64,000 nt of DNA, taken from an uncultured Azospirillum sp. (GTDB lineage Bacteria; Pseudomonadota; Alphaproteobacteria; CACIAM-22H2). The notes under the pieces are model-generated. The model did no database searches. It was not told the origin of the DNA and worked only from the letters and a program-made list of their open reading frames with translations. A program made the position numbers and the translations under genes. This document shows positions 1,378-22,250 of the stretch, piece after piece (the stretch's first letter is position 1; each line of letters opens with the position of its first letter). The stretch is from NCBI GenBank assembly GCA_964416335.1, contig CAYQDN010000014.1, forward strand, positions 15,107 through 79,106, given 5' to 3'.

Positions 1378-2062
1378 GGTCGAGAATCTCGAGACCAGCT
1401 ACGGCGCAAGCCAGATCCTGTTCGGCATCTCCTTTACGGTCGCCGCGGGCGAGGTCGTGACGCTTCTGGGCCGCAACGGCATGGGCAAGACGACGACCGT
1501 GCGCTCGATCATGTCACTCACACGTCCCAAGGCCGGCTCGGTGCGGCTCGACGGCAGGGCGATGACGGGGCTGCCCGCCTATCGCGTGGCGCAGGCCGGC
1601 ATCGGGCTGGTGCCCGAAGGCCGCCAGATCTTCCCGAACCTGACGGTGCGCGAGAATCTTGTCGCCACCGCGCGACCGGTCGCGGGCGGCTGGACGCTCG
1701 ACAAGGTGCACGGCTATTTCCCGCGGTTGGCCGAGCGCGCGTCCAACATGGGCAACCAGCTGTCGGGCGGCGAACAGCAGATGCTCGCCATCGGCCGCGC
1801 ACTGATGACGAACCCGAAGCTGCTGATCCTCGACGAGGCGACCGAGGGCCTTGCCCCGCTCGTCCGCCAGGAAATCTGGCGGTGCCTTGCCGCCCTCAAG
1901 GCCGAGCGGCAGGCGATCCTCGTGATCGACAAGAATCTTGAGTCTCTTCTGAAGCTTGCGGACCGCCACGTCGTCGTCGAGAAGGGCCGCGTGGTCTGGC
2001 AGGGCGGCTCGCGCGAGCTGGCGGCCGCCCCGGAAATCCAGCATCGCTATCTCGGCGTCTGA
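1370..2062 (+). CDS. livF: Branched-chain amino-acid ABC transporter ATP-binding protein LivF
   Basis: N-terminus MLEVENLETSYG, Walker A motif GRNGMGKTT and signature LSGGEQQML. The ATG at 1370 overlaps the livG stop. Confidence 0.85.
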   Translation: MLEVENLETSYGASQILFGISFTVAAGEVVTLLGRNGMGKTTTVRSIMSLTRPKAGSVRLDGRAMTGLPAYRVAQAGIGLVPEGRQIFPNLTVRENLVATARPVAGGWTLDKVHGYFPRLAERASNMGNQLSGGEQQMLAIGRALMTNPKLLILDEATEGLAPLVRQEIWRCLAALKAERQAILVIDKNLESLLKLADRHVVVEKGRVVWQGGSRELAAAPEIQHRYLGV

Positions 2063-2240
2063 TCGTCCTTGACCTGCTGACTCCGCCTCCTTCATGATTC
2101 TTGGGTCGAGGTCCGGTCGATTCGCCCGTTCATCGGGAGAGTGGCTGGATGGGTGGGCGGCCCTATCCGTCCTTCCGGCGACCGATACGACGTCCGCGCG
2201 GGATCGCGGGCCGGTCGCCGCCACGAAAGGAGGTGATCCA

Positions 2241-2360
2241 GTGCGCACAGGATCGTTCAATTCCGGCTTCGTGCCGGTGCTTGCCGTGACCGCTTTGGAG
2301 AAATTCGAAGCTGGCCATGCGCGGACGACGACCTCAGCGATCGCCTCCGACGTGGAATGA
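2241..2360 (+). CDS. Candidate small ORF of 39 aa with a GTG start, preceded by a near-perfect Shine-Dalgarno sequence. It may instead be a structured non-coding leader.
   Basis: The sequence GAAAGGAGGTGATCCA, complementary to the 16S 3-prime end, lies 7 nt upstream of GTG 2241. The ORF ends at TGA 2358-2360, just before two hairpins. The codon bias is only moderately GC3-rich. Confidence 0.2.
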   Translation: MRTGSFNSGFVPVLAVTALEKFEAGHARTTTSAIASDVE

Positions 2361-2395
2361 CGGGCCGCAAGGCCCCTTAACGGCATTCGATCCGA

Positions 2396-2433
2396 CCCCC
2401 GCCGGGTCCCGCCCGGCGGGGGTTTCGATTCTT
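2396..2433 (+). terminator. Rho-independent terminator-like hairpin with an 11-bp GC stem (cccccgccggg / cccggcggggg) followed by TTTCGATTCTT.
   Basis: The hairpin is seen directly in the sequence. It is preceded by a second GNRA-loop hairpin, GGGCC-GCAA-GGCCC, at 2362-2375. It lies at the left edge of the AT-rich island. Confidence 0.6.
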
Positions 2434-2500
2434 ATGGACTAGTCCGTCCAATAAATTGAAAATCAAATAAAATCGATCTTTGATTGTTTTGAGGCAAAAG

Positions 2501-3535
2501 ATGAAGCGGTTCGATACGCGCCCCTACAGCGTTGCCGATTTTATCGAATGGACTGCAAATGGACTCTTGAATTTGAGCCCAGATTTTCAGCGGCGCTCGG
2601 TGTGGAAAGAGTCTGCCCGCTCGTACTTAATCGACACACTATTGCGCGGCCGACCGATTCCGAAAATATTGATCACCCAACATTTAAAGGCAGGAAAAAC
2701 CGTCCGTGTCGTTGTCGATGGGCAGCAGAGGCTTCGCGCAATTTTAGACTATGTCTCAGACTCATTTAAGATTTCCAAAGCCCACAACCCAGAATTCCCG
2801 GTCGTATACTCAAAGCTTCCTGAAGAGATGCAGGATGCTCTCAGAACTTATGAAATATCTTGCGACCTGCTTTATGGCGCTGAGTACGAAGAAATATTAG
2901 ACATCTTTACACGCTTGAACGCGTACACGGTTCCGCTTACTCAACAGGAAAAGCTGAACGCAGAGTACGTCGGCTACTTCAAGCAAACGTCCTACAAAAT
3001 CGGCTATAAATACGTCAAATACTGGTTGGATTCCGGTGTCTTAAGCCAAGATCGAATTGCTCGAATGGGGGAAGCGGAATTGGCCTCCGACCTCACAATC
3101 GCAATGCTCTTTGGCGTTCAAACAAGCAAATCGATTCCGACATATTACAAGCGTTTTGAAGACAACGACACTGCGCTCAAAAATGCTGAGGTTCGATTTG
3201 ATCGAGTCATGTCGATAGTTGGCGCCATATATCCAGTGGCAGAACTTAAAGCGTCGATCTGGAAGAAGGGGCCGTTGTTCTACACCCTTTTTGGAATTGT
3301 CGCTCACAGCCAGTACGGAGTTGCTGGCGTCATTTCAGATCGTCCGAAAATCAACGAAAAGGCGCTTGCTAAGACCCGACAGCGCTTGGATGAAATTGGC
3401 GCGCTTCTGGACCGAAGTCCGACGACCCTCAATAGGGATCAGTTAAAATTCGTCGATGCGTCAAAGCGGCGCACTGCGGACACAAAATCAAGAGCATTCC
3501 GCATCGCATATGCGTGCAAAGAGCTGATCAAATAG
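2501..3535 (+). CDS. DUF262 / ParB-like nuclease-domain protein, of the GmrSD/BrxU N-terminal domain type. It is stand-alone, with no DUF1524 HNH-like domain.
   Basis: The N-terminal motif LSPDFQRRSVW (FQR..W) and the DGQQRL motif (nt 2717-2734) are hallmarks of DUF262. A GAGG RBS lies at 2491-2494 before ATG 2501. The gene sits inside a low-GC island. Confidence 0.8.
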   Translation: MKRFDTRPYSVADFIEWTANGLLNLSPDFQRRSVWKESARSYLIDTLLRGRPIPKILITQHLKAGKTVRVVVDGQQRLRAILDYVSDSFKISKAHNPEFPVVYSKLPEEMQDALRTYEISCDLLYGAEYEEILDIFTRLNAYTVPLTQQEKLNAEYVGYFKQTSYKIGYKYVKYWLDSGVLSQDRIARMGEAELASDLTIAMLFGVQTSKSIPTYYKRFEDNDTALKNAEVRFDRVMSIVGAIYPVAELKASIWKKGPLFYTLFGIVAHSQYGVAGVISDRPKINEKALAKTRQRLDEIGALLDRSPTTLNRDQLKFVDASKRRTADTKSRAFRIAYACKELIK

Positions 3536-3556
3536 CCACAAGTCGGTTTCGCCAAA

Positions 3557-4237
3557 ATGGCCCGCCTTCCAATTACAAGGGTTCCACTTGCTAAGCTCGA
3601 GAAGCATCTTAAGAGCATCGAGAAAATTGACTCAAACAATAGAAAGAGACTACTTCCGAAGCTGGCGCCCATTACGGGTGGCCATGCGCCGATACTATCG
3701 GTGGTGGCCCGCAAACAGAAAAAGTTGGAGCTAGAAACTCTGACAGAAGGACTCTACCTAGCAGTGCATAGAGAATTCGAGGAATTTCTCGAGAGAATAT
3801 TTATGCTTTATCTATCAAGATCAAATTACGTATCGATGTTGGGGGTTAAGGCCCTTGTGCAACCAAAGTCAGAAGAGCACGCGCGCAAATTGTTGAAGGG
3901 CGCTCATCGGGGTAGAGTTGACTGGAACGACACGGGGGTAGTGGCGGATAGAGCGGATATTTATTTTAAATCCGGACAACCATTCTCAGTTGTAATACGT
4001 CCGCGCCAAGCGATTCTCAAGGAAATGCAAATCATAAGGAACCGAGTTGCACATAGCAGCGGCGAAGCTGAAACGAAATTTCAAAATGTCGTGACTGCTT
4101 ATTTCTCGGTACCTCCAATCAATAGAGTTCAGCCTGGAGAATTTCTAAATCTTCCAGCCAAAGCGACGCCATCAATTTCAAATTTTCACTATTTTATTTC
4201 CGTAATTAGAGCGGTGTCTCGAGGCTGTACAGTTTGA
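3557..4237 (+). CDS. Hypothetical protein with a canonical HEPN-type Rx4-6H motif (RNRVAH). It is a putative HEPN RNase partner of the DUF262 protein.
   Basis: The motif IIRNRVAHSSGE lies at residues 161-166 (nt 4037-4054) and is followed by an alpha-helical region. A 21-bp gap separates it from the DUF262 gene. It has the same low-GC composition, and no other recognisable domain was found by eye. Confidence 0.45.
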   Translation: MARLPITRVPLAKLEKHLKSIEKIDSNNRKRLLPKLAPITGGHAPILSVVARKQKKLELETLTEGLYLAVHREFEEFLERIFMLYLSRSNYVSMLGVKALVQPKSEEHARKLLKGAHRGRVDWNDTGVVADRADIYFKSGQPFSVVIRPRQAILKEMQIIRNRVAHSSGEAETKFQNVVTAYFSVPPINRVQPGEFLNLPAKATPSISNFHYFISVIRAVSRGCTV

Positions 4238-4310
4238 TGGTAATTGGACAAATAGCCTTTTAGTGTAGTGCGATTGCTAACAAACGTCAGAAACCGTTGT
4301 TCCTAGAATT

Positions 4311-14945: not shown

Positions 14946-15384
14946 GGGCCCCGCCGGCATAGGCGCCGGGCTCCGGATCGAAAGGGGCCGCGTGGCGGCG
15001 GACCCGCGCACCCAGCTTCTCCGCCATTTCGGCGATCACATGGTCGTCGAGCAGGCGCAATACGCCATCGGGAAGGACCTGCACGGCCAGGTGCCGGTTC
15101 CCGACATGCCATGCCACGCGCGCGAGATGTGCGGAATCGGTGCAGGCGATGTCCATCACAGGTTCGTCCGCCGCACGGATTTCGACATAGGAGCCGTCCT
15201 CCAGCGCCAGCCCATCGCCGGCCTTCAGATGTACGGCATGCACGAGGTCGAGAAGGAACTCGAATCCGTCGTCGGCACGCAGCGTGACCCGGCGCCGGTG
15301 GCGGTCGTCGGAGGCCAGCGTGACATGGCCGCGAAGACGCTGCCGGTCCCATGCCCCGGCCGGATCGACCGCCAGTGCGCGCAT
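14935..15384 (-). CDS. ureE: Urease accessory metallochaperone UreE
   Basis: A 149-aa protein with a His-rich C-terminus (GGAHGH). Its start is coupled to the ureC stop. Confidence 0.8.
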   Translation of the reverse strand: MRALAVDPAGAWDRQRLRGHVTLASDDRHRRRVTLRADDGFEFLLDLVHAVHLKAGDGLALEDGSYVEIRAADEPVMDIACTDSAHLARVAWHVGNRHLAVQVLPDGVLRLLDDHVIAEMAEKLGARVRRHAAPFDPEPGAYAGGAHGH

Positions 15385-17093
15385 CAGAACAGGAAATAGC
15401 GCTGCGCGAGCGGCAGCAACTTCGCCGGTTCGCAGACGATCGGCGTGCCGTCGGCGCGGACTTCGTAGGTCTCGGGATCGACCTCCACCTTCGGCATCGC
15501 GTCGTTGTGGATCATGTGCTTCTTGCCGATCTTGCGCGTGTTCTTGACCGGAAGGACGGTGCGCGCGAGACCGAGCTTGCGCCCGATCCCGTCCTTGTGC
15601 GCGAGCTTCGACACGAAGGTGAGGCACGACGAACCCAGCGCCTTGCCGAACGCGCCGAACATCGGCCGGTAGTGCACGGGCTGCGGCGTGGGGATCGAGG
15701 CGTTGGGATCGCCCATCGGGGCGGCCGCGATCGTGCCACATTTCAGGATCATCTCGGGCTTGGCGCCGAAGAAGGCCGGCTGCCAGATCACGAGATCGGC
15801 GTACTTGCCCTTCTCGATCGAACCGACATAGCTGGAGATCCCCTGTGCGATCGCCGGATTGATCGTGTATTTGGCGAGATAGCGCTTGGCGCGGAAATTG
15901 TCGTTCTCGCCCGTCTCTTCCTTCAGCCGGCCGCGCTGCATCTTCATCTTGTGGGCCGTCTGCCATGTCCGCGCGATGACCTCGCCGATGCGCCCCATCG
16001 CCTGGCTGTCCGAACTCATCATCGAGATGGCGCCGATGTCGTGGAAGATGTCTTCCGCGGCGATCGTCTCGCGCCGGATGCGGCTTTCGGCGAAGGCGAC
16101 GTCCTCGGGGATGCGTTGGTCGAGATGGTGGCAGACCATGAGCATGTCGAGATGCTCGTCGATCGTGTTGACCGTGAAGGGCCGCGTGGGATTGGTCGAC
16201 GACGGCAGCACGTTGGGCAGACCGATGACCTTGATGATGTCGGGCGCATGCCCGCCGCCGGCGCCTTCGGTATGGAAGGCGTGGATCGTGCGGCCCTTGA
16301 ACGCGGCGACCGTATCCTCGACAAAGCCGCTCTCGTTCAGCGTGTCGGTGTGGATCGCGACCTGGATGTCGTATTTGTCCGCAAGCTTCAGGCAGGTGTC
16401 GATTGCGTTGGGGGTCGTCCCCCAGTCCTCGTGCAGCTTCATGGCGCACGCACCCGCGCGCACCATCTCGACCATCGGCGCCAGCGCCGAGGCGTTGCCC
16501 TTGCCGAAGAAGCCCATGTTGATCGGCAGGCCCTCGGCGGCCTCGAGGATGCGATGCATGTGCCACGGGCCCGGCGTGCAGGTCGTCGCCGATGTGCCGG
16601 CGGCGGGTCCCGTCCCGCCGCCCATCAGGGTCGTGATGCCGGAATAGAGCGCATCCTCGACCTGCTGCGGGCAGATGAGGTGGATGTGCGCATCGATGCC
16701 GCCCGCTGTGACGATGCGGCCCTCGCCGGCGATCACCTCGGTTCCCGGACCGACGACGATGTCCACGCCGGGCTGGATGTCGGGGTTCCCGGCCTTGCCG
16801 AGGGCAGCGATCTTGCCGTCCTTGAGGCCGATGTCGCATTTCACGATGCCCCACCAGTCGAGGACGAGCGCGTTCGTGATGACGGTATCGACGGCCCCTT
16901 CGCGGCGCGAGCGCTGGCTCTGCCCCATGCCGTCGCGGATGACCTTGCCGCCGCCGAACTTCACTTCCTCGCCGAAGACGGTCAGGTCCTTCTCGACCTC
17001 GATGAACAGATCGGTATCGCCCAGGCGCACGCGGTCGCCGGTCGTCGGGCCGTACATGCCGGCATAGGCGGCACGGGAAATCCGATAGGACAT
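15384..17093 (-). CDS. ureC: Urease alpha subunit UreC
   Basis: A 569-aa protein with the [30 protein letters not shown]-terminus and the active-site motifs of UreC. Confidence 0.95.
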
Positions 17094-18652: not shown

Positions 18653-19432
18653 ATGACCGACCAATCCTGCCGCGACCTTCGCGTGCTCGTGACCGCCGGT
18701 GCGGCCGGAATCGGCCGTGCCATTGCGGGTGCATTCGCCGGAGCCGGCGCGCGCGTCGTCGTGTGCGATGTCGACGAAGCCGCCCTCGCCCGTTTCCGCC
18801 AGGAGCTGCCCGGCCACGAGGCCTTCGAATGCGACGTGTCCGACGAGGACGATGTCGACGAGCTGTTCGAGGACGTCATCGATTCACTGGGCGGGCTCGA
18901 CGTGCTGGTCAACAACGCCGGGATCGCCGGCCCGACCGGTCCGGTCGAGACCCTCTCGCCCGACGACTGGCGCCACACGATGGAAATCAACATCGACGCG
19001 CAGTTCCTCTGCACCCGGCGGGCCGTGCCTCTGCTGCGCGCCAGCGGCGGCGGGACGATCGTCAATCTTTCGTCGGCGGCGGGAAAATTCGGATTTGCCC
19101 ATCGCACGCCCTATTCGGCGAGCAAGTGGGCGGTCGTCGGATTCACGAAGAGCCTCGCGATCGAGCTCGGGGCCGACAACATCCGGGTCAATGCGATCCT
19201 TCCCGGTGCGGTCGACGGGCCGCGCATCCGCCGCGTCATCCAGGCAAAAGCCGCCTCGACCGGCGTTCCGGTCGAAGAGATGGAATCGCTCTATACGCGC
19301 CAGGCCTCGCTCGGCCGGATGGTCGAGGCCGAAGACATCGCGCGGCTTGCGGTCTTCCTAGCCGGCGTGGGCGGACGGAATATCTCGGGTCAGGCCCTGT
19401 CGGTCGACGGCGACACGCAGGCCCTCGTCTAA
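18653..19432 (+). CDS. SDR-family oxidoreductase (short-chain dehydrogenase)
   Basis: Nucleotide-binding motif TAGAAGIGRA and catalytic motifs NNAG, YSASK. An AGGGGGA RBS is present. Confidence 0.85.
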   Translation: MTDQSCRDLRVLVTAGAAGIGRAIAGAFAGAGARVVVCDVDEAALARFRQELPGHEAFECDVSDEDDVDELFEDVIDSLGGLDVLVNNAGIAGPTGPVETLSPDDWRHTMEINIDAQFLCTRRAVPLLRASGGGTIVNLSSAAGKFGFAHRTPYSASKWAVVGFTKSLAIELGADNIRVNAILPGAVDGPRIRRVIQAKAASTGVPVEEMESLYTRQASLGRMVEAEDIARLAVFLAGVGGRNISGQALSVDGDTQALV

Positions 19433-19442
19433 CAGACCGGGG

Positions 19443-19880
19443 CTATTTCTTTCCCAGGTCGTGCACCAGCGCCAGCGGTGCGGGATCGCGCCCGGCCGAT
19501 GCGGCGTCGTCGATGCGCTGGATGTGGCCGTCGACCTGCGCTTCCTGTTCGACCGTCAGCGTCTCGTAGCGGATGTCGCCGACGACCTGCGCCGTACGGC
19601 CAAGGTCGATCGACTTGGCGCGGATCGGGCCGAAAACCTTGCCGAGGATGCGCACGCGCTCGGCCGTGATCTCGCCACGCACTTCGCCGGTGGCACCGAT
19701 CGTCAGCGACTTCGTGCGCACGACGCCTTCGACTCGCCCGTCGAGCTGGATGTCGCCCTCGCACACGATATCGCCCTTCAGCGACAGGCTCGCCGAAATG
19801 ATCGACGGCACCGACGGGCTGTTCGCCTTGAGTGCGCGCGTGTCGGGAACGACGGGCTTGCTATTCGACTTTCCGAACAT
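19443..19880 (-). CDS. Bactofilin (DUF583 polymer-forming cytoskeletal protein)
   Basis: The N-terminus MFGKSNSKP resembles the conserved bactofilin membrane-targeting sequence, and a beta-helical repeat domain follows. The gene overlaps the M23 peptidase gene by 20 nt. Confidence 0.8.
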   Translation of the reverse strand: MFGKSNSKPVVPDTRALKANSPSVPSIISASLSLKGDIVCEGDIQLDGRVEGVVRTKSLTIGATGEVRGEITAERVRILGKVFGPIRAKSIDLGRTAQVVGDIRYETLTVEQEAQVDGHIQRIDDAASAGRDPAPLALVHDLGKK

Positions 19881-21186
19881 GGCGGGCAGCCTCCAGGAAA
19901 CGGGCCGGGTCGACGGCACGGCCGTCGACGAGAACTTCGTAGTGAACGTGCGGACCAGTGCTCCGGCCGGTCGATCCGAGCAGCCCGACCGTCTGGCGAC
20001 GCTCGACCCGCTGTCCGACCCGGACATCGATCCGTGTCATGTGACCATAGCGCGTCGAGAGACCGAAATCATGCTCGATCTCGACCATGTTCCCGTACTC
20101 GCCGTTCCAGCCGGCCGTCACAATTTTTCCTGCCGCCGTCGCCAGTATGGGCGTGCGGGGCGGGGCCGACAGGTCGATGCCGCTGTGCATGGCGAGCTGG
20201 CCGTTGAACGGGTCGCGGCGCATGCCGAACGGGCTCATCACCGAAAAATCATCGAGGGGCGCGCGCAGTGGAAGTCGGCGCACGGCCGCACGCATGTCAC
20301 GCAGCCGCTCGAGATCTGTGCCGAGCGACGCTAGCAGAAGGCTCGGATCCGTACTCGCCCGGTCGAGCGTCGGCACGACGAACGGGCCGCCCGAATTGCC
20401 GCTGCGCGCACCGATCACGCGATCGGCCTGCAAGCCGGCAGCACGCAGGACACGCACGATCTCTTCGATCTGGGCGCGCGTGCTGCCTGAAATTTCCGCA
20501 AGGGCGGCATCCTGCGCGCGGGCAGCGTCGCGATCGACCGCGCGCAGGCTCGCAAGATCGCCCGTCGTCGCGCGATGCTCGATCGCCAGGCGCCTGGCCT
20601 CCACCGCAAGCCGTCCGCGCTCGGCAAGGGCTTCGATGCGCACGCGTTCCAGCGCCGCCACGCGGTCGGCGGCACTCGCCGGGTCCGGTGCACGGCCGGC
20701 AAGGCGTGCTTCGACGCCGCGCAGGCGCTCCATCAGTCCTTCGTGCGTGACAAGCGCACGCTCGCGCTCGTTCTCCGCAGCCGAAAGGCCCTGCTCGATC
20801 TCGACCATGCGCTCGGTCAGGCGGTTGCGCTGCTCGATAAGGCCGGCGACGGCTTCGGCCGCTTCGGCCCGGCCGCGTTCGGTCGCCCGCGCCAAAGCCT
20901 CGCCCAGCTCTTCCAGACGGGTGCGATGGTCGTCCTGGAGGCGCACCACGTCCTGCGCGCGCAGTTCGATTTCGGTCAGAGCCGAACGGTAACTGTCGAT
21001 CGCCGCGCCCCCCGATGCGGCGGCAAGCACCAGGGCGCCGGCGGCAAGACGCTGCAGGCAGGTGGAAATCCGGACCAGCCGGACCTGGCCGTCCGAGCGC
21101 ACGAGAACCTCGCGGGGCCGGAAAAGCCACGCGTCGACGCGCCCGAGCCAGAGTCCAATTCGGCGGTTTCGTTCCTGCTGCTGCAT
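19861..21186 (-). CDS. M23-family (LytM-type) metallopeptidase with an N-terminal TM helix and coiled-coil region; LmdC-like
   Basis: The C-terminal M23 motifs HSGIDL and HVHYEV, a long Ala/Arg/Glu-rich coiled coil and an N-terminal TM helix. It is upstream of bactofilin, apparently in the same operon. Confidence 0.8.
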   Translation of the reverse strand: MQQQERNRRIGLWLGRVDAWLFRPREVLVRSDGQVRLVRISTCLQRLAAGALVLAAASGGAAIDSYRSALTEIELRAQDVVRLQDDHRTRLEELGEALARATERGRAEAAEAVAGLIEQRNRLTERMVEIEQGLSAAENERERALVTHEGLMERLRGVEARLAGRAPDPASAADRVAALERVRIEALAERGRLAVEARRLAIEHRATTGDLASLRAVDRDAARAQDAALAEISGSTRAQIEEIVRVLRAAGLQADRVIGARSGNSGGPFVVPTLDRASTDPSLLLASLGTDLERLRDMRAAVRRLPLRAPLDDFSVMSPFGMRRDPFNGQLAMHSGIDLSAPPRTPILATAAGKIVTAGWNGEYGNMVEIEHDFGLSTRYGHMTRIDVRVGQRVERRQTVGLLGSTGRSTGPHVHYEVLVDGRAVDPARFLEAARHVRKVE

Positions 21187-21449
21187 TGTCCCGATTTCGA
21201 CTTCCACTGTTCGACCGTCAATCCGTTCGCCGCCCAACCTTTGATGGCTGGTACCGGATTCTTTCGTTCGGACGGCGGATGATGCCGATTCACCTACATG
21301 CGTTCAAGCAAGCCTTTGGCCAATGTTCTGAAAATTAGACGGTCTTTTTCACGGCGAAGTCGTTACGCGAATAGTCGCGCTCAACCTGCTGATTCAATGC
21401 CGATTCCGATTTTGCAAAAGACACACACTGTGGATAACTCGGGGACAAA

Positions 21450-22250
21450 TCACGCCCGGCGATCGGCCTGCCGTGTGCCGAAATAGGCAAGCACCGCCAC
21501 GACGCCAATCATAATGGCAGCAAGGGCGTTTATCTGAGGCGAAAGGCCGAGCCGGACGCTCGAATAGACGAGCATCGGCAGGGTCGTGGCGCCCGGCCCG
21601 GAAACGAAACTCGCGATGACCAAATCGTCGAGCGAAAGCGTGAAGGCAAGCAGCCAGCCTGCCGCGACGGCCGGCAGCAGCAGCGGAAGGGTCACCCGCG
21701 CGAACGCGCGCAAGGGCCCTGCCCCCAAGTCGAGAGCCGCCTCCTCAAGCGCCGGTTCGATGCCGCGCAGCCGCGCCTCCACGATTACCGCGACGAATGC
21801 CGTCCCATACGTCGCGTGGGCGAGCGCAATGGCGACCATTCCGCGCTCGCCCGGCCAGCCGACCAGCCGGTCGAGCGCGGAATAGGTCATCAACATCGAC
21901 AGACCCAAAATCACTTCGGGCAAGACCATCGGGGCGAGCAGCAGCAACGCGAACAAGGTCCTCAGCCGGAAGCGGCCAAGCCGCCCGAGCGAATAGCCTG
22001 CGAGCGTGCCGAACACCGCCGAGACGGTGCCGGCGAGTGCCGCGATGCCAAGGCTCAGCCAGGCAGCGTCAAGCATGCGCGTATTTCCCAGCAATTCGGC
22101 GTACCAGCGCGTGGAAAAACCGGCCCAGACGGTCACGAGCCTGCTTTCGTTGAAGCTGAAAACGACGAGCAGCAGGATCGGCAGATAGAGAAACGCAAAA
22201 CCCGCTGCAAGCAGGGCCGGAAGTCGCGGCAGGAAATCGGCGGGCTTCAT
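21450..22250 (-). CDS. ABC transporter permease (PotC/PotI-like)
   Basis: A polytopic protein with a binding-protein-dependent permease motif. An ATGA overlap couples it to the upstream permease gene. Confidence 0.8.
   Translation of the reverse strand: MKPADFLPRLPALLAAGFAFLYLPILLLVVFSFNESRLVTVWAGFSTRWYAELLGNTRMLDAAWLSLGIAALAGTVSAVFGTLAGYSLGRLGRFRLRTLFALLLLAPMVLPEVILGLSMLMTYSALDRLVGWPGERGMVAIALAHATYGTAFVAVIVEARLRGIEPALEEAALDLGAGPLRAFARVTLPLLLPAVAAGWLLAFTLSLDDLVIASFVSGPGATTLPMLVYSSVRLGLSPQINALAAIMIGVVAVLAYFGTRQADRRA

Follow-up and report, generated by a model that had tools for sequence, protein, structure and literature searches.

Two overlapping genes on the minus strand of the window analyzed here (the whole stretch of DNA under study, 64 kb from an uncultured Azospirillum sp.) most probably constitute an lmdC-bacA operon, i.e., an instance of the morphogenetic module of bactofilin and M23 endopeptidase that Pöhl et al. 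reported (2024, eLife 12:RP86577; PMC10945521). We put the probability of this reading at roughly 0.87. Positions 19443-21186 hold two co-oriented open reading frames (ORFs), with the M23 peptidase gene leading and the bactofilin gene following (Table 1). Sequence and structural modeling together predict the peptidase to be a bitopic inner-membrane protein with a cytoplasmic hairpin, a stalk of helices, and an M23 domain whose catalytic residues are intact. A first-pass annotation of the same DNA had proposed that an LmdC-like M23 peptidase and a BacA-type bactofilin form a conserved module here, and the hairpin, the architecture, the catalytic residues, and the gene linkage laid out below all speak for that proposal. 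The module, its overlapping arrangement, and its wide distribution were already published in 2024, and the window pair is an ordinary further example. Its recognition nevertheless sharpens the annotation: "M23 family protein" becomes LmdC, and "polymer-forming cytoskeletal protein" becomes BacA.

The module has been characterized in Hyphomonas neptunium (HNE lmdC and HNE_2629) and Rhodospirillum rubrum (Rru_A1868 and Rru_A1867) and is listed in 226 species from many phyla (PMC10945521). In LmdC, an essential bitopic DD-endopeptidase, a short tail in the cytoplasm is joined through a transmembrane helix to a coiled coil in the periplasm, followed by an active M23 domain. The tail binds BacA with a dissociation constant of ~15 µM, and mutation of the R. 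rubrum LmdC hairpin at R25/H26/L27 and R30/S31 abolishes BacA-dependent localization. The two model species share 39% identity in LmdC and 37% in BacA, and H. neptunium lmdC overlaps bacA by 17 bp (PMC10945521).

The same succession of hairpin, transmembrane helix, coiled coil, and active-type M23 domain is predicted for the window peptidase. In an AlphaFold2 model built on an alignment of 68 homologues (mean predicted local distance difference test score [pLDDT], 84), the chain starts with a helix (residues 2-21) and a β-hairpin (strands 25-31 and 34-40), continues as two long helices (42-164, then 169-249), and closes with the M23 fold at the C terminus. Only the first ~20 residues of helix 42-164 form a hydrophobic segment. 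Hydropathy peaks in the 19-residue segment 47-65 (LAAGALVLAAASGGAAIDS; Kyte-Doolittle value, 1.48), and residues 1-44 carry a net charge of +5. By a crude test against shuffled sequences, heptad periodicity is significant in residues 65-164 (p ~0.004), but not in residues 169-249. Hydropathy, modeled helices, and the periodicity in 65-164 support, as a prediction, the N-terminally anchored coiled-coil M23 peptidase of the first-pass annotation.

The catalytic domain is recognized by Pfam Peptidase_M23 with an expect (E) value of 8.9e-34 and displays the signature H334-S-G-I-D338, H382, and H413-V-H415. H334, D338, H413, and H415 are invariant in the 68 homologues, where H382 is nearly so (at least 90%), and all five residues are invariant in a 13-sequence alignment. 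The closest solved M23 domain by sequence is that of Helicobacter pylori Csd1/Csd2 (5j1l; E 3.4e-27), and the nearest solved domains by sequence and fold, i.e., Csd1/Csd2 (5j1l), ShyA, and NMB0315, are active endopeptidases. The H. pylori Csd1/Csd2-CcmA system also resembles the window pair in that an M23 peptidase is tied genetically and functionally to a bactofilin. However, the match is restricted to the M23 domain, and the Csd proteins are devoid of the LmdC-type hairpin and long stalk. The literature ties to Hyphomonas, Rhodospirillum, and Helicobacter that the first-pass annotation had pointed to are correct (PMC10945521).

In the presumed BacA-binding hairpin, R25, R30, and S31 of the window protein fall on the positions of R. 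rubrum R25/H26/L27 and R30/S31 with the spacing R-x-x-x-x-R-S, and R25 and R30 are invariant in the 68 homologues. The motif reads R25-E-V-L-V-R30-S31 in the window, R-H-F-M-I-R-S in Pararhodospirillum oryzae, and R-Q-I-Y-H-R-S in Hyphomonas, and it can be aligned with 34 orthologues. The stretch ahead of the hairpin reads F-R-P-R-E in the window, whereas the common form is F-P-E-R-Q.

The downstream product is a bactofilin: Pfam Bactofilin (PF04519) covers residues 26-120 at 97 of 98 profile positions (E 6.3e-24). Its closest solved relative is Caulobacter crescentus BacA (2n3d; E 4.6e-21 over residues 18-135), and the Thermus thermophilus bactofilin 6ria matches with E 4e-8. Translation from ATG 19880 yields the N terminus MFGKSNSKP, just as first read. 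The initial MFGKSNSK would be a membrane-targeting peptide of the same type as that of C. crescentus BacA, in which F2, K4, and K7 of MFSKQAKS are critical, the global consensus being MFSKKKK (PMC12448750). F2 and K4 are present in the window, as in the MF-x-K peptide of H. neptunium and R. rubrum BacA. All bactofilins of the clade begin with MFGKSN or MFLKAN. Some LmdC-linked bactofilins elsewhere start differently: those of two Rhodospirillales/Stellaceae metagenome-assembled genomes (MAGs; loci L017 and L030) begin with MWFK, and those of loci L044 and L059 begin with MKKFRRIIYLKI or MKKLRKLIFLKM, stretches that may serve as a hydrophobic anchor in place of the usual targeting peptide.

Gene linkage sets this peptidase apart from other M23 proteins. 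With each species represented by one genome, a scan listed at least 80 loci with M23 relatives at 25-55% identity, i.e., distant relatives. Because the window protein gave no match to Pfam DUF5930 (PF19353), the domain seen in the N-terminal part of most homologues, we built our own profile of residues 18-64 (hairpin plus transmembrane segment) and searched it against all ORFs of the listed loci to assign N-terminal-module status. Among these listed matches, a bactofilin gene lies directly downstream on the same strand in 34/34 module-positive loci and in 1/45 module-negative loci. The module-positive loci span Sphingomonadales, Rhodobacterales, Rhodospirillales, Caulobacterales, and Hyphomonadaceae, with the bactofilin gene -62 to +76 nt downstream as estimated from the linkage table and overlaps of 11-68 nt when starts are assigned by the MF dipeptide. 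Exact-protein look-ups of closer relatives (n = 10; LmdC identity from 88% down to 34%) found the pair kept in 10/10. In relatives with at least 65% identity the flanks are syntenic, with an ABC transporter upstream and a short-chain dehydrogenase/reductase (SDR) gene and a urease cluster downstream. In five more distant ones (L090-L094) the flanks are entirely different and the pair alone is retained, which makes the linkage specific to the pair. Conserved linkage, the lack of which the first-pass annotation would have counted against its proposal, is seen both in the 34 listed loci and in the 10 looked-up relatives.

A practical rule emerges from this contrast: where an M23 protein has an N-terminal F-x-x-R-x-[ILV]-x-x-R-S hairpin plus a transmembrane helix, a bactofilin gene is to be expected immediately downstream. 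A looser link between M23 and bactofilin genes, of different build, is found in loci of Paraburkholderia (L058, L072, and L074), Pseudomonas sp. (L073), a Pseudomonadota MAG (L075), and a Comamonadaceae MAG (L054). There, the M23 gene is devoid of the LmdC N-terminal module, and a non-overlapping gene for an MFSKKK-type bactofilin follows 27-506 nt downstream. In the five from Paraburkholderia, Pseudomonas sp., and the Pseudomonadota MAG, none of them the single module-negative locus counted above, the bactofilin gene is 330-500 nt away.

Sequence comparison with the studied module relied on proxies, namely orthologues from Hyphomonas sp. CY54-11-8 (L065) and P. oryzae (L005). The window LmdC is 32% identical to the Hyphomonas protein (residues 22-439; E 9e-38) and 34% identical to that of P. 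oryzae (E 2e-49), and the corresponding values for BacA are 34% (E 4e-20) and 45% (E 5e-28). These identities (32-34% and 34-45%) are comparable to the 39% and 37% that separate the two model species. The window also shares with H. neptunium and R. rubrum the lmdC-then-bacA order and a bacA start placed within the lmdC 3' end in the same relative frame. The overlap is 17 nt in both proxies, as reported for H. neptunium, versus 20 nt in the window; 20 nt is also the length found for the corresponding pair of a Caulobacter sp. MAG (L037). Differences from the H. neptunium and R. rubrum modules include the origin from the MAG of an uncultured alphaproteobacterium, the altered stretch ahead of the hairpin, the undetected DUF5930, a clade-specific DnaA-box consensus upstream, and the location between urea and amide metabolism genes.

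Several points weigh against assignment to the LmdC-BacA module. Congeneric or sister-genus orthologues stand in for the H. neptunium and R. rubrum sequences themselves. The second lysine of the putative targeting peptide is K8, not at position 7 as in C. crescentus BacA. DUF5930 was not reached on the window LmdC even at E 10. Topology, coiled coil, and hairpin are predicted features, and the transmembrane segment is Ala/Gly-rich and of moderate hydrophobicity. Finally, the linkage contrast of 34/34 versus 1/45 returns a Fisher p of 1.4e-21, a value that overstates independence given that the loci come from related species.

The 20-nt overlap of the two genes noticed at first pass is exact, and the final seven lmdC codons (H-V-R-K-V-E-stop) double as bacA M-F-G-K-S-N-S in another frame. 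The same overlap length is found in relatives whose LmdC identity ranges from 88% down to 44%. In orthologous loci with an MF start, bacA always begins inside the lmdC 3' end, with overlaps of 11, 17, 20, 23, 26, 29, 47, 50, 53, 62, or 68 nt. Since every one of these lengths equals 2 modulo 3, the relative frame of the two genes is fixed. The LmdC tail motif (H/N/Y/D)-V corresponds to NAT-GTT read over bacA ATG-TT(C), and LmdC codons for L-E-A or K-A-G provide GGAGGC or AAGGC as the bacA ribosome-binding site, equally distant from the bacA start in orthologues. The near invariance of V437 and K439 in the 13-sequence LmdC alignment can be traced to this dual coding of the bacA start and ribosome-binding site. 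Fixed-frame embedding of the start suggests translational coupling, and the embedded bacA start probably couples synthesis of LmdC to that of BacA. Fixed-frame dual coding, as a side observation, may be new.

By extension from the studied orthologues, the bactofilin would form polymers along the cytoplasmic side of the membrane, to which its MF-x-K peptide attaches it. By binding the β-hairpin of the peptidase, the polymer would gather the DD-endopeptidase in the periplasm at certain sites, where the cutting of peptidoglycan cross-links would bias the insertion of new wall material and alter cell shape. The first-pass annotation had gone from the module to a curved, budding, or stalked morphology, or else to localized peptidoglycan remodeling. 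Remodeling, the weaker of the two, is warranted; the step to morphology finds no support in this analysis. The same module is present in Erythrobacter, Novosphingobium, Qipengyuania, and Paracoccus genomes.

Those genera, together with Parerythrobacter, are described as simple rods or cocci, and their genomes encode a hairpin LmdC and an overlapping MF-start bactofilin. Because the module also occurs in such plain rods and cocci, its presence has no predictive value for a curved, stalked, or budding cell. There is a real chance, if short of an even one, that a genuine module serves an ordinary rod-shaped or ovoid organism for local housekeeping remodeling of peptidoglycan, e.g., in the maturation of poles or septa or the control of cell width. 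Counting against an ordinary rod, the nearest named relative of the window peptidase (67% identity) is encoded by a Tagaea sp. MAG of the Rhodospirillales, an order with many vibrioid and spiral forms, and all cases studied experimentally to date have complex shapes. A literature search on Tagaea morphology returned nothing usable. The listing of the module in 226 species of many phyla and the mild phenotype that is the only consequence of BacA loss in C. crescentus lean toward the ordinary rod (PMC10945521).

It is also conceivable, but unlikely, that the bactofilin mainly scaffolds another client, e.g., a PbpC-like synthase or a chromosome-segregation factor, and that the overlap merely ensures co-expression. 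Bactofilin clients are diverse, and the characterized client of C. crescentus BacA is the synthase PbpC, which it recruits (PMC12448750; PMC10945521). Yet the BacA-binding residues of the LmdC hairpin are conserved in the window, and the pair is retained where all other neighbors change. Additional clients would complement the LmdC-BacA assignment more than compete with it.

That the peptidase is a generic LytM factor of cell division or elongation, either an EnvC/NlpD/DipM-type amidase activator or a MepM/ShyA-type endopeptidase with an incidental bactofilin neighbor, is highly improbable and largely refuted by the linkage test, in which every listed locus with the N-terminal module shows bactofilin linkage, but hardly any other listed M23 gene does. 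What resemblance there is comes from layout and family matches. Like EnvC, the FtsEX-regulated amidase activator of Escherichia coli and Vibrio, the window protein places a C-terminal M23/LytM fold after a long coiled coil, and Foldseek aligns it over its full length with EnvC 6tpi_A (355 columns; 18% identity). Homologues are annotated as "MepM/NlpD" in sources, and NCBIfam returns MepM, ShyA, ShyC, EnvC, NlpD, and DipM. However, these matches involve the M23 domain only and fall far under the curated cut-offs: 106 versus 341 for MepM, 105.5 versus 700 for ShyC, and 99 versus 700 for ShyA (all confined to residues ~300-428), 47.5 versus 270 for EnvC, 46 versus 311 for NlpD, and 57 versus 740-900 for DipM. 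The M23 domains of EnvC, NlpD, and DipM are degenerate (PMC10945521), whereas the active site is intact in the window protein. EnvC, with its catalytically dead LytM domain, is moreover secreted, not anchored by an N-terminal helix, and not linked to a bactofilin. Pfam finds no LysM domain in the window peptidase, and there is no ftsEX in the neighborhood of the window pair. A generic EnvC/NlpD homologue, the alternative that the first-pass annotation had kept in view, is therefore not what the cut-offs, the catalytic residues, and the retained linkage describe.

Upstream of the LmdC-BacA pair, two conserved elements bear on how its expression might be controlled. The first is a perfect DnaA-box consensus, TTATCCACA, which occurs once in the 64-kb window versus 0.02 exact copies expected by chance. 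Relatives with 65-88% LmdC identity have it unchanged within an otherwise diverging spacer, and copies in relatives are placed at L084, 5679-5687; L085, 5758-5766; L087, 2755; L088, 2812; and L089, 2808. Two loci with 44-45% LmdC identity and different upstream genes carry a tandem (T/C)TATCCACAtATCCACA (L090, 2880/2888; L091, 1198/1206); the consensus is thus retained even where the upstream gene differs. Altogether, 8/9 sampled operons with LmdC identity of at least 42% have a perfect or tandem box upstream of lmdC. The box is absent or degenerate in L092-L094, and as a general lmdC promoter feature it was rejected, with 0.14/kb upstream versus 0.12/kb in the background of 34 distant loci. 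Our literature search found no paper linking DnaA boxes with bactofilin operons, and this conserved consensus may be a new side observation.

The second element is the block TGCTTGAAC-N9-GAATCGGCATCATC (21310-21277, minus strand), which six relatives (LmdC identity, 65-88%) share unchanged in the midst of a diverging spacer. A comparable block exists in L092. By its conservation it looks like a candidate lmdC-bacA promoter; a sigma-70 consensus scan of 19200-21700 called no promoter, this TTGAAC/CATCAT block included.

Dual coding and the clade-specific box together yield hypotheses on the control of module expression and stoichiometry. Tentatively, and on the doubtful side of the balance, DnaA or another TTATCCACA-binding factor might directly control lmdC-bacA in this clade, with dual coding enforcing translational coupling and stoichiometry. 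If true, DnaA control would link production of this cell-shape module to the cell cycle or the initiation of replication, and enforced coupling would account for the conservation of the (H/N/Y/D)-V tail in LmdC.

Table 1. Features of the lmdC-bacA locus and its upstream region, in window coordinates.
Feature	Position	Strand	Details or basis
lmdC-like gene; 441-aa bitopic M23 DD-metalloendopeptidase (predicted)	19861..21186	-	ATG 21186, stop 19863-19861
bacA-like gene; 145-aa bactofilin	19443..19880	-	ATG 19880, stop 19445-19443
lmdC/bacA overlap, 20 nt	19861..19880	-	Sequence
bacA ribosome-binding site GGAGG, within lmdC codons L-E-A	19890..19894	-	Sequence
Cytoplasmic β-hairpin FRPREVLVRSDGQVRLVRI, presumed BacA-binding motif	21067..21123 (codons 22-40)	-	AlphaFold2 strands 25-31, 34-40
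Single transmembrane helix (predicted)	20998..21066 (codons 41-63)	-	Hydropathy; AlphaFold2 helix from residue 42
Periplasmic helical, coiled-coil-like stalk (predicted)	20440..20994 (codons 65-249)	-	AlphaFold2 helices 42-164, 169-249
M23 catalytic domain, H334-x3-D338, H382, H413-x-H415	19906..20190 (codons 333-427)	-	Pfam
Candidate promoter TTGAAC-17 nt-CATCAT	21279..21307	-	Conservation between relatives
Perfect DnaA-box consensus TTATCCACA, 243-251 nt upstream of lmdC ATG	21429..21437	-	Sole exact copy in 64 kb

Gene boundaries agree with public gene calls on identical sequence (MAG assembly GCA_016195065.1), which give the same 441-aa and 145-aa products. The NCBI entry of the identical 441-aa protein, also from a MAG, is named "peptidoglycan DD-metalloendopeptidase family protein." Longer ORFs are available for both genes. 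For bacA, the start at 19880 is preferred because GGAGG lies 9 nt ahead of it, bactofilin homologues are 142-147 aa long, and orthologues begin with MF; the same homologue lengths, conserved N terminus, and ribosome-binding site rule out ATG 20027. For lmdC, homologue lengths and the conserved N terminus rule out TTG 21237 in favor of 21186.

The module is located between urea and amide metabolism genes. A scan of 19200-21700 for intrinsic terminators found nothing, and neither tRNA nor rRNA genes were found in the 64-kb window. An Rfam match to 5_ureB_sRNA (RF02514; 112 bits, E 1.3e-28) at 16652-16941 on the plus strand falls, in antisense orientation, within the gene for the urease alpha subunit (15384..17093, minus strand). 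Conserved coding sequence probably accounts for this match, which gives no evidence of an antisense RNA here. At one end of the window, a low-GC island (~1400-4300) has a GC content of 0.51 versus 0.66 for the window. It contains a 290-aa ORF (1514-2386, minus strand) with no Pfam match and, beside it, an ORF (2480-3535, plus strand) whose product has the restriction-endonuclease N-terminal domain GmrSD_N/DUF262 (E 2.5e-21); this ORF looks like a horizontally acquired defense gene.

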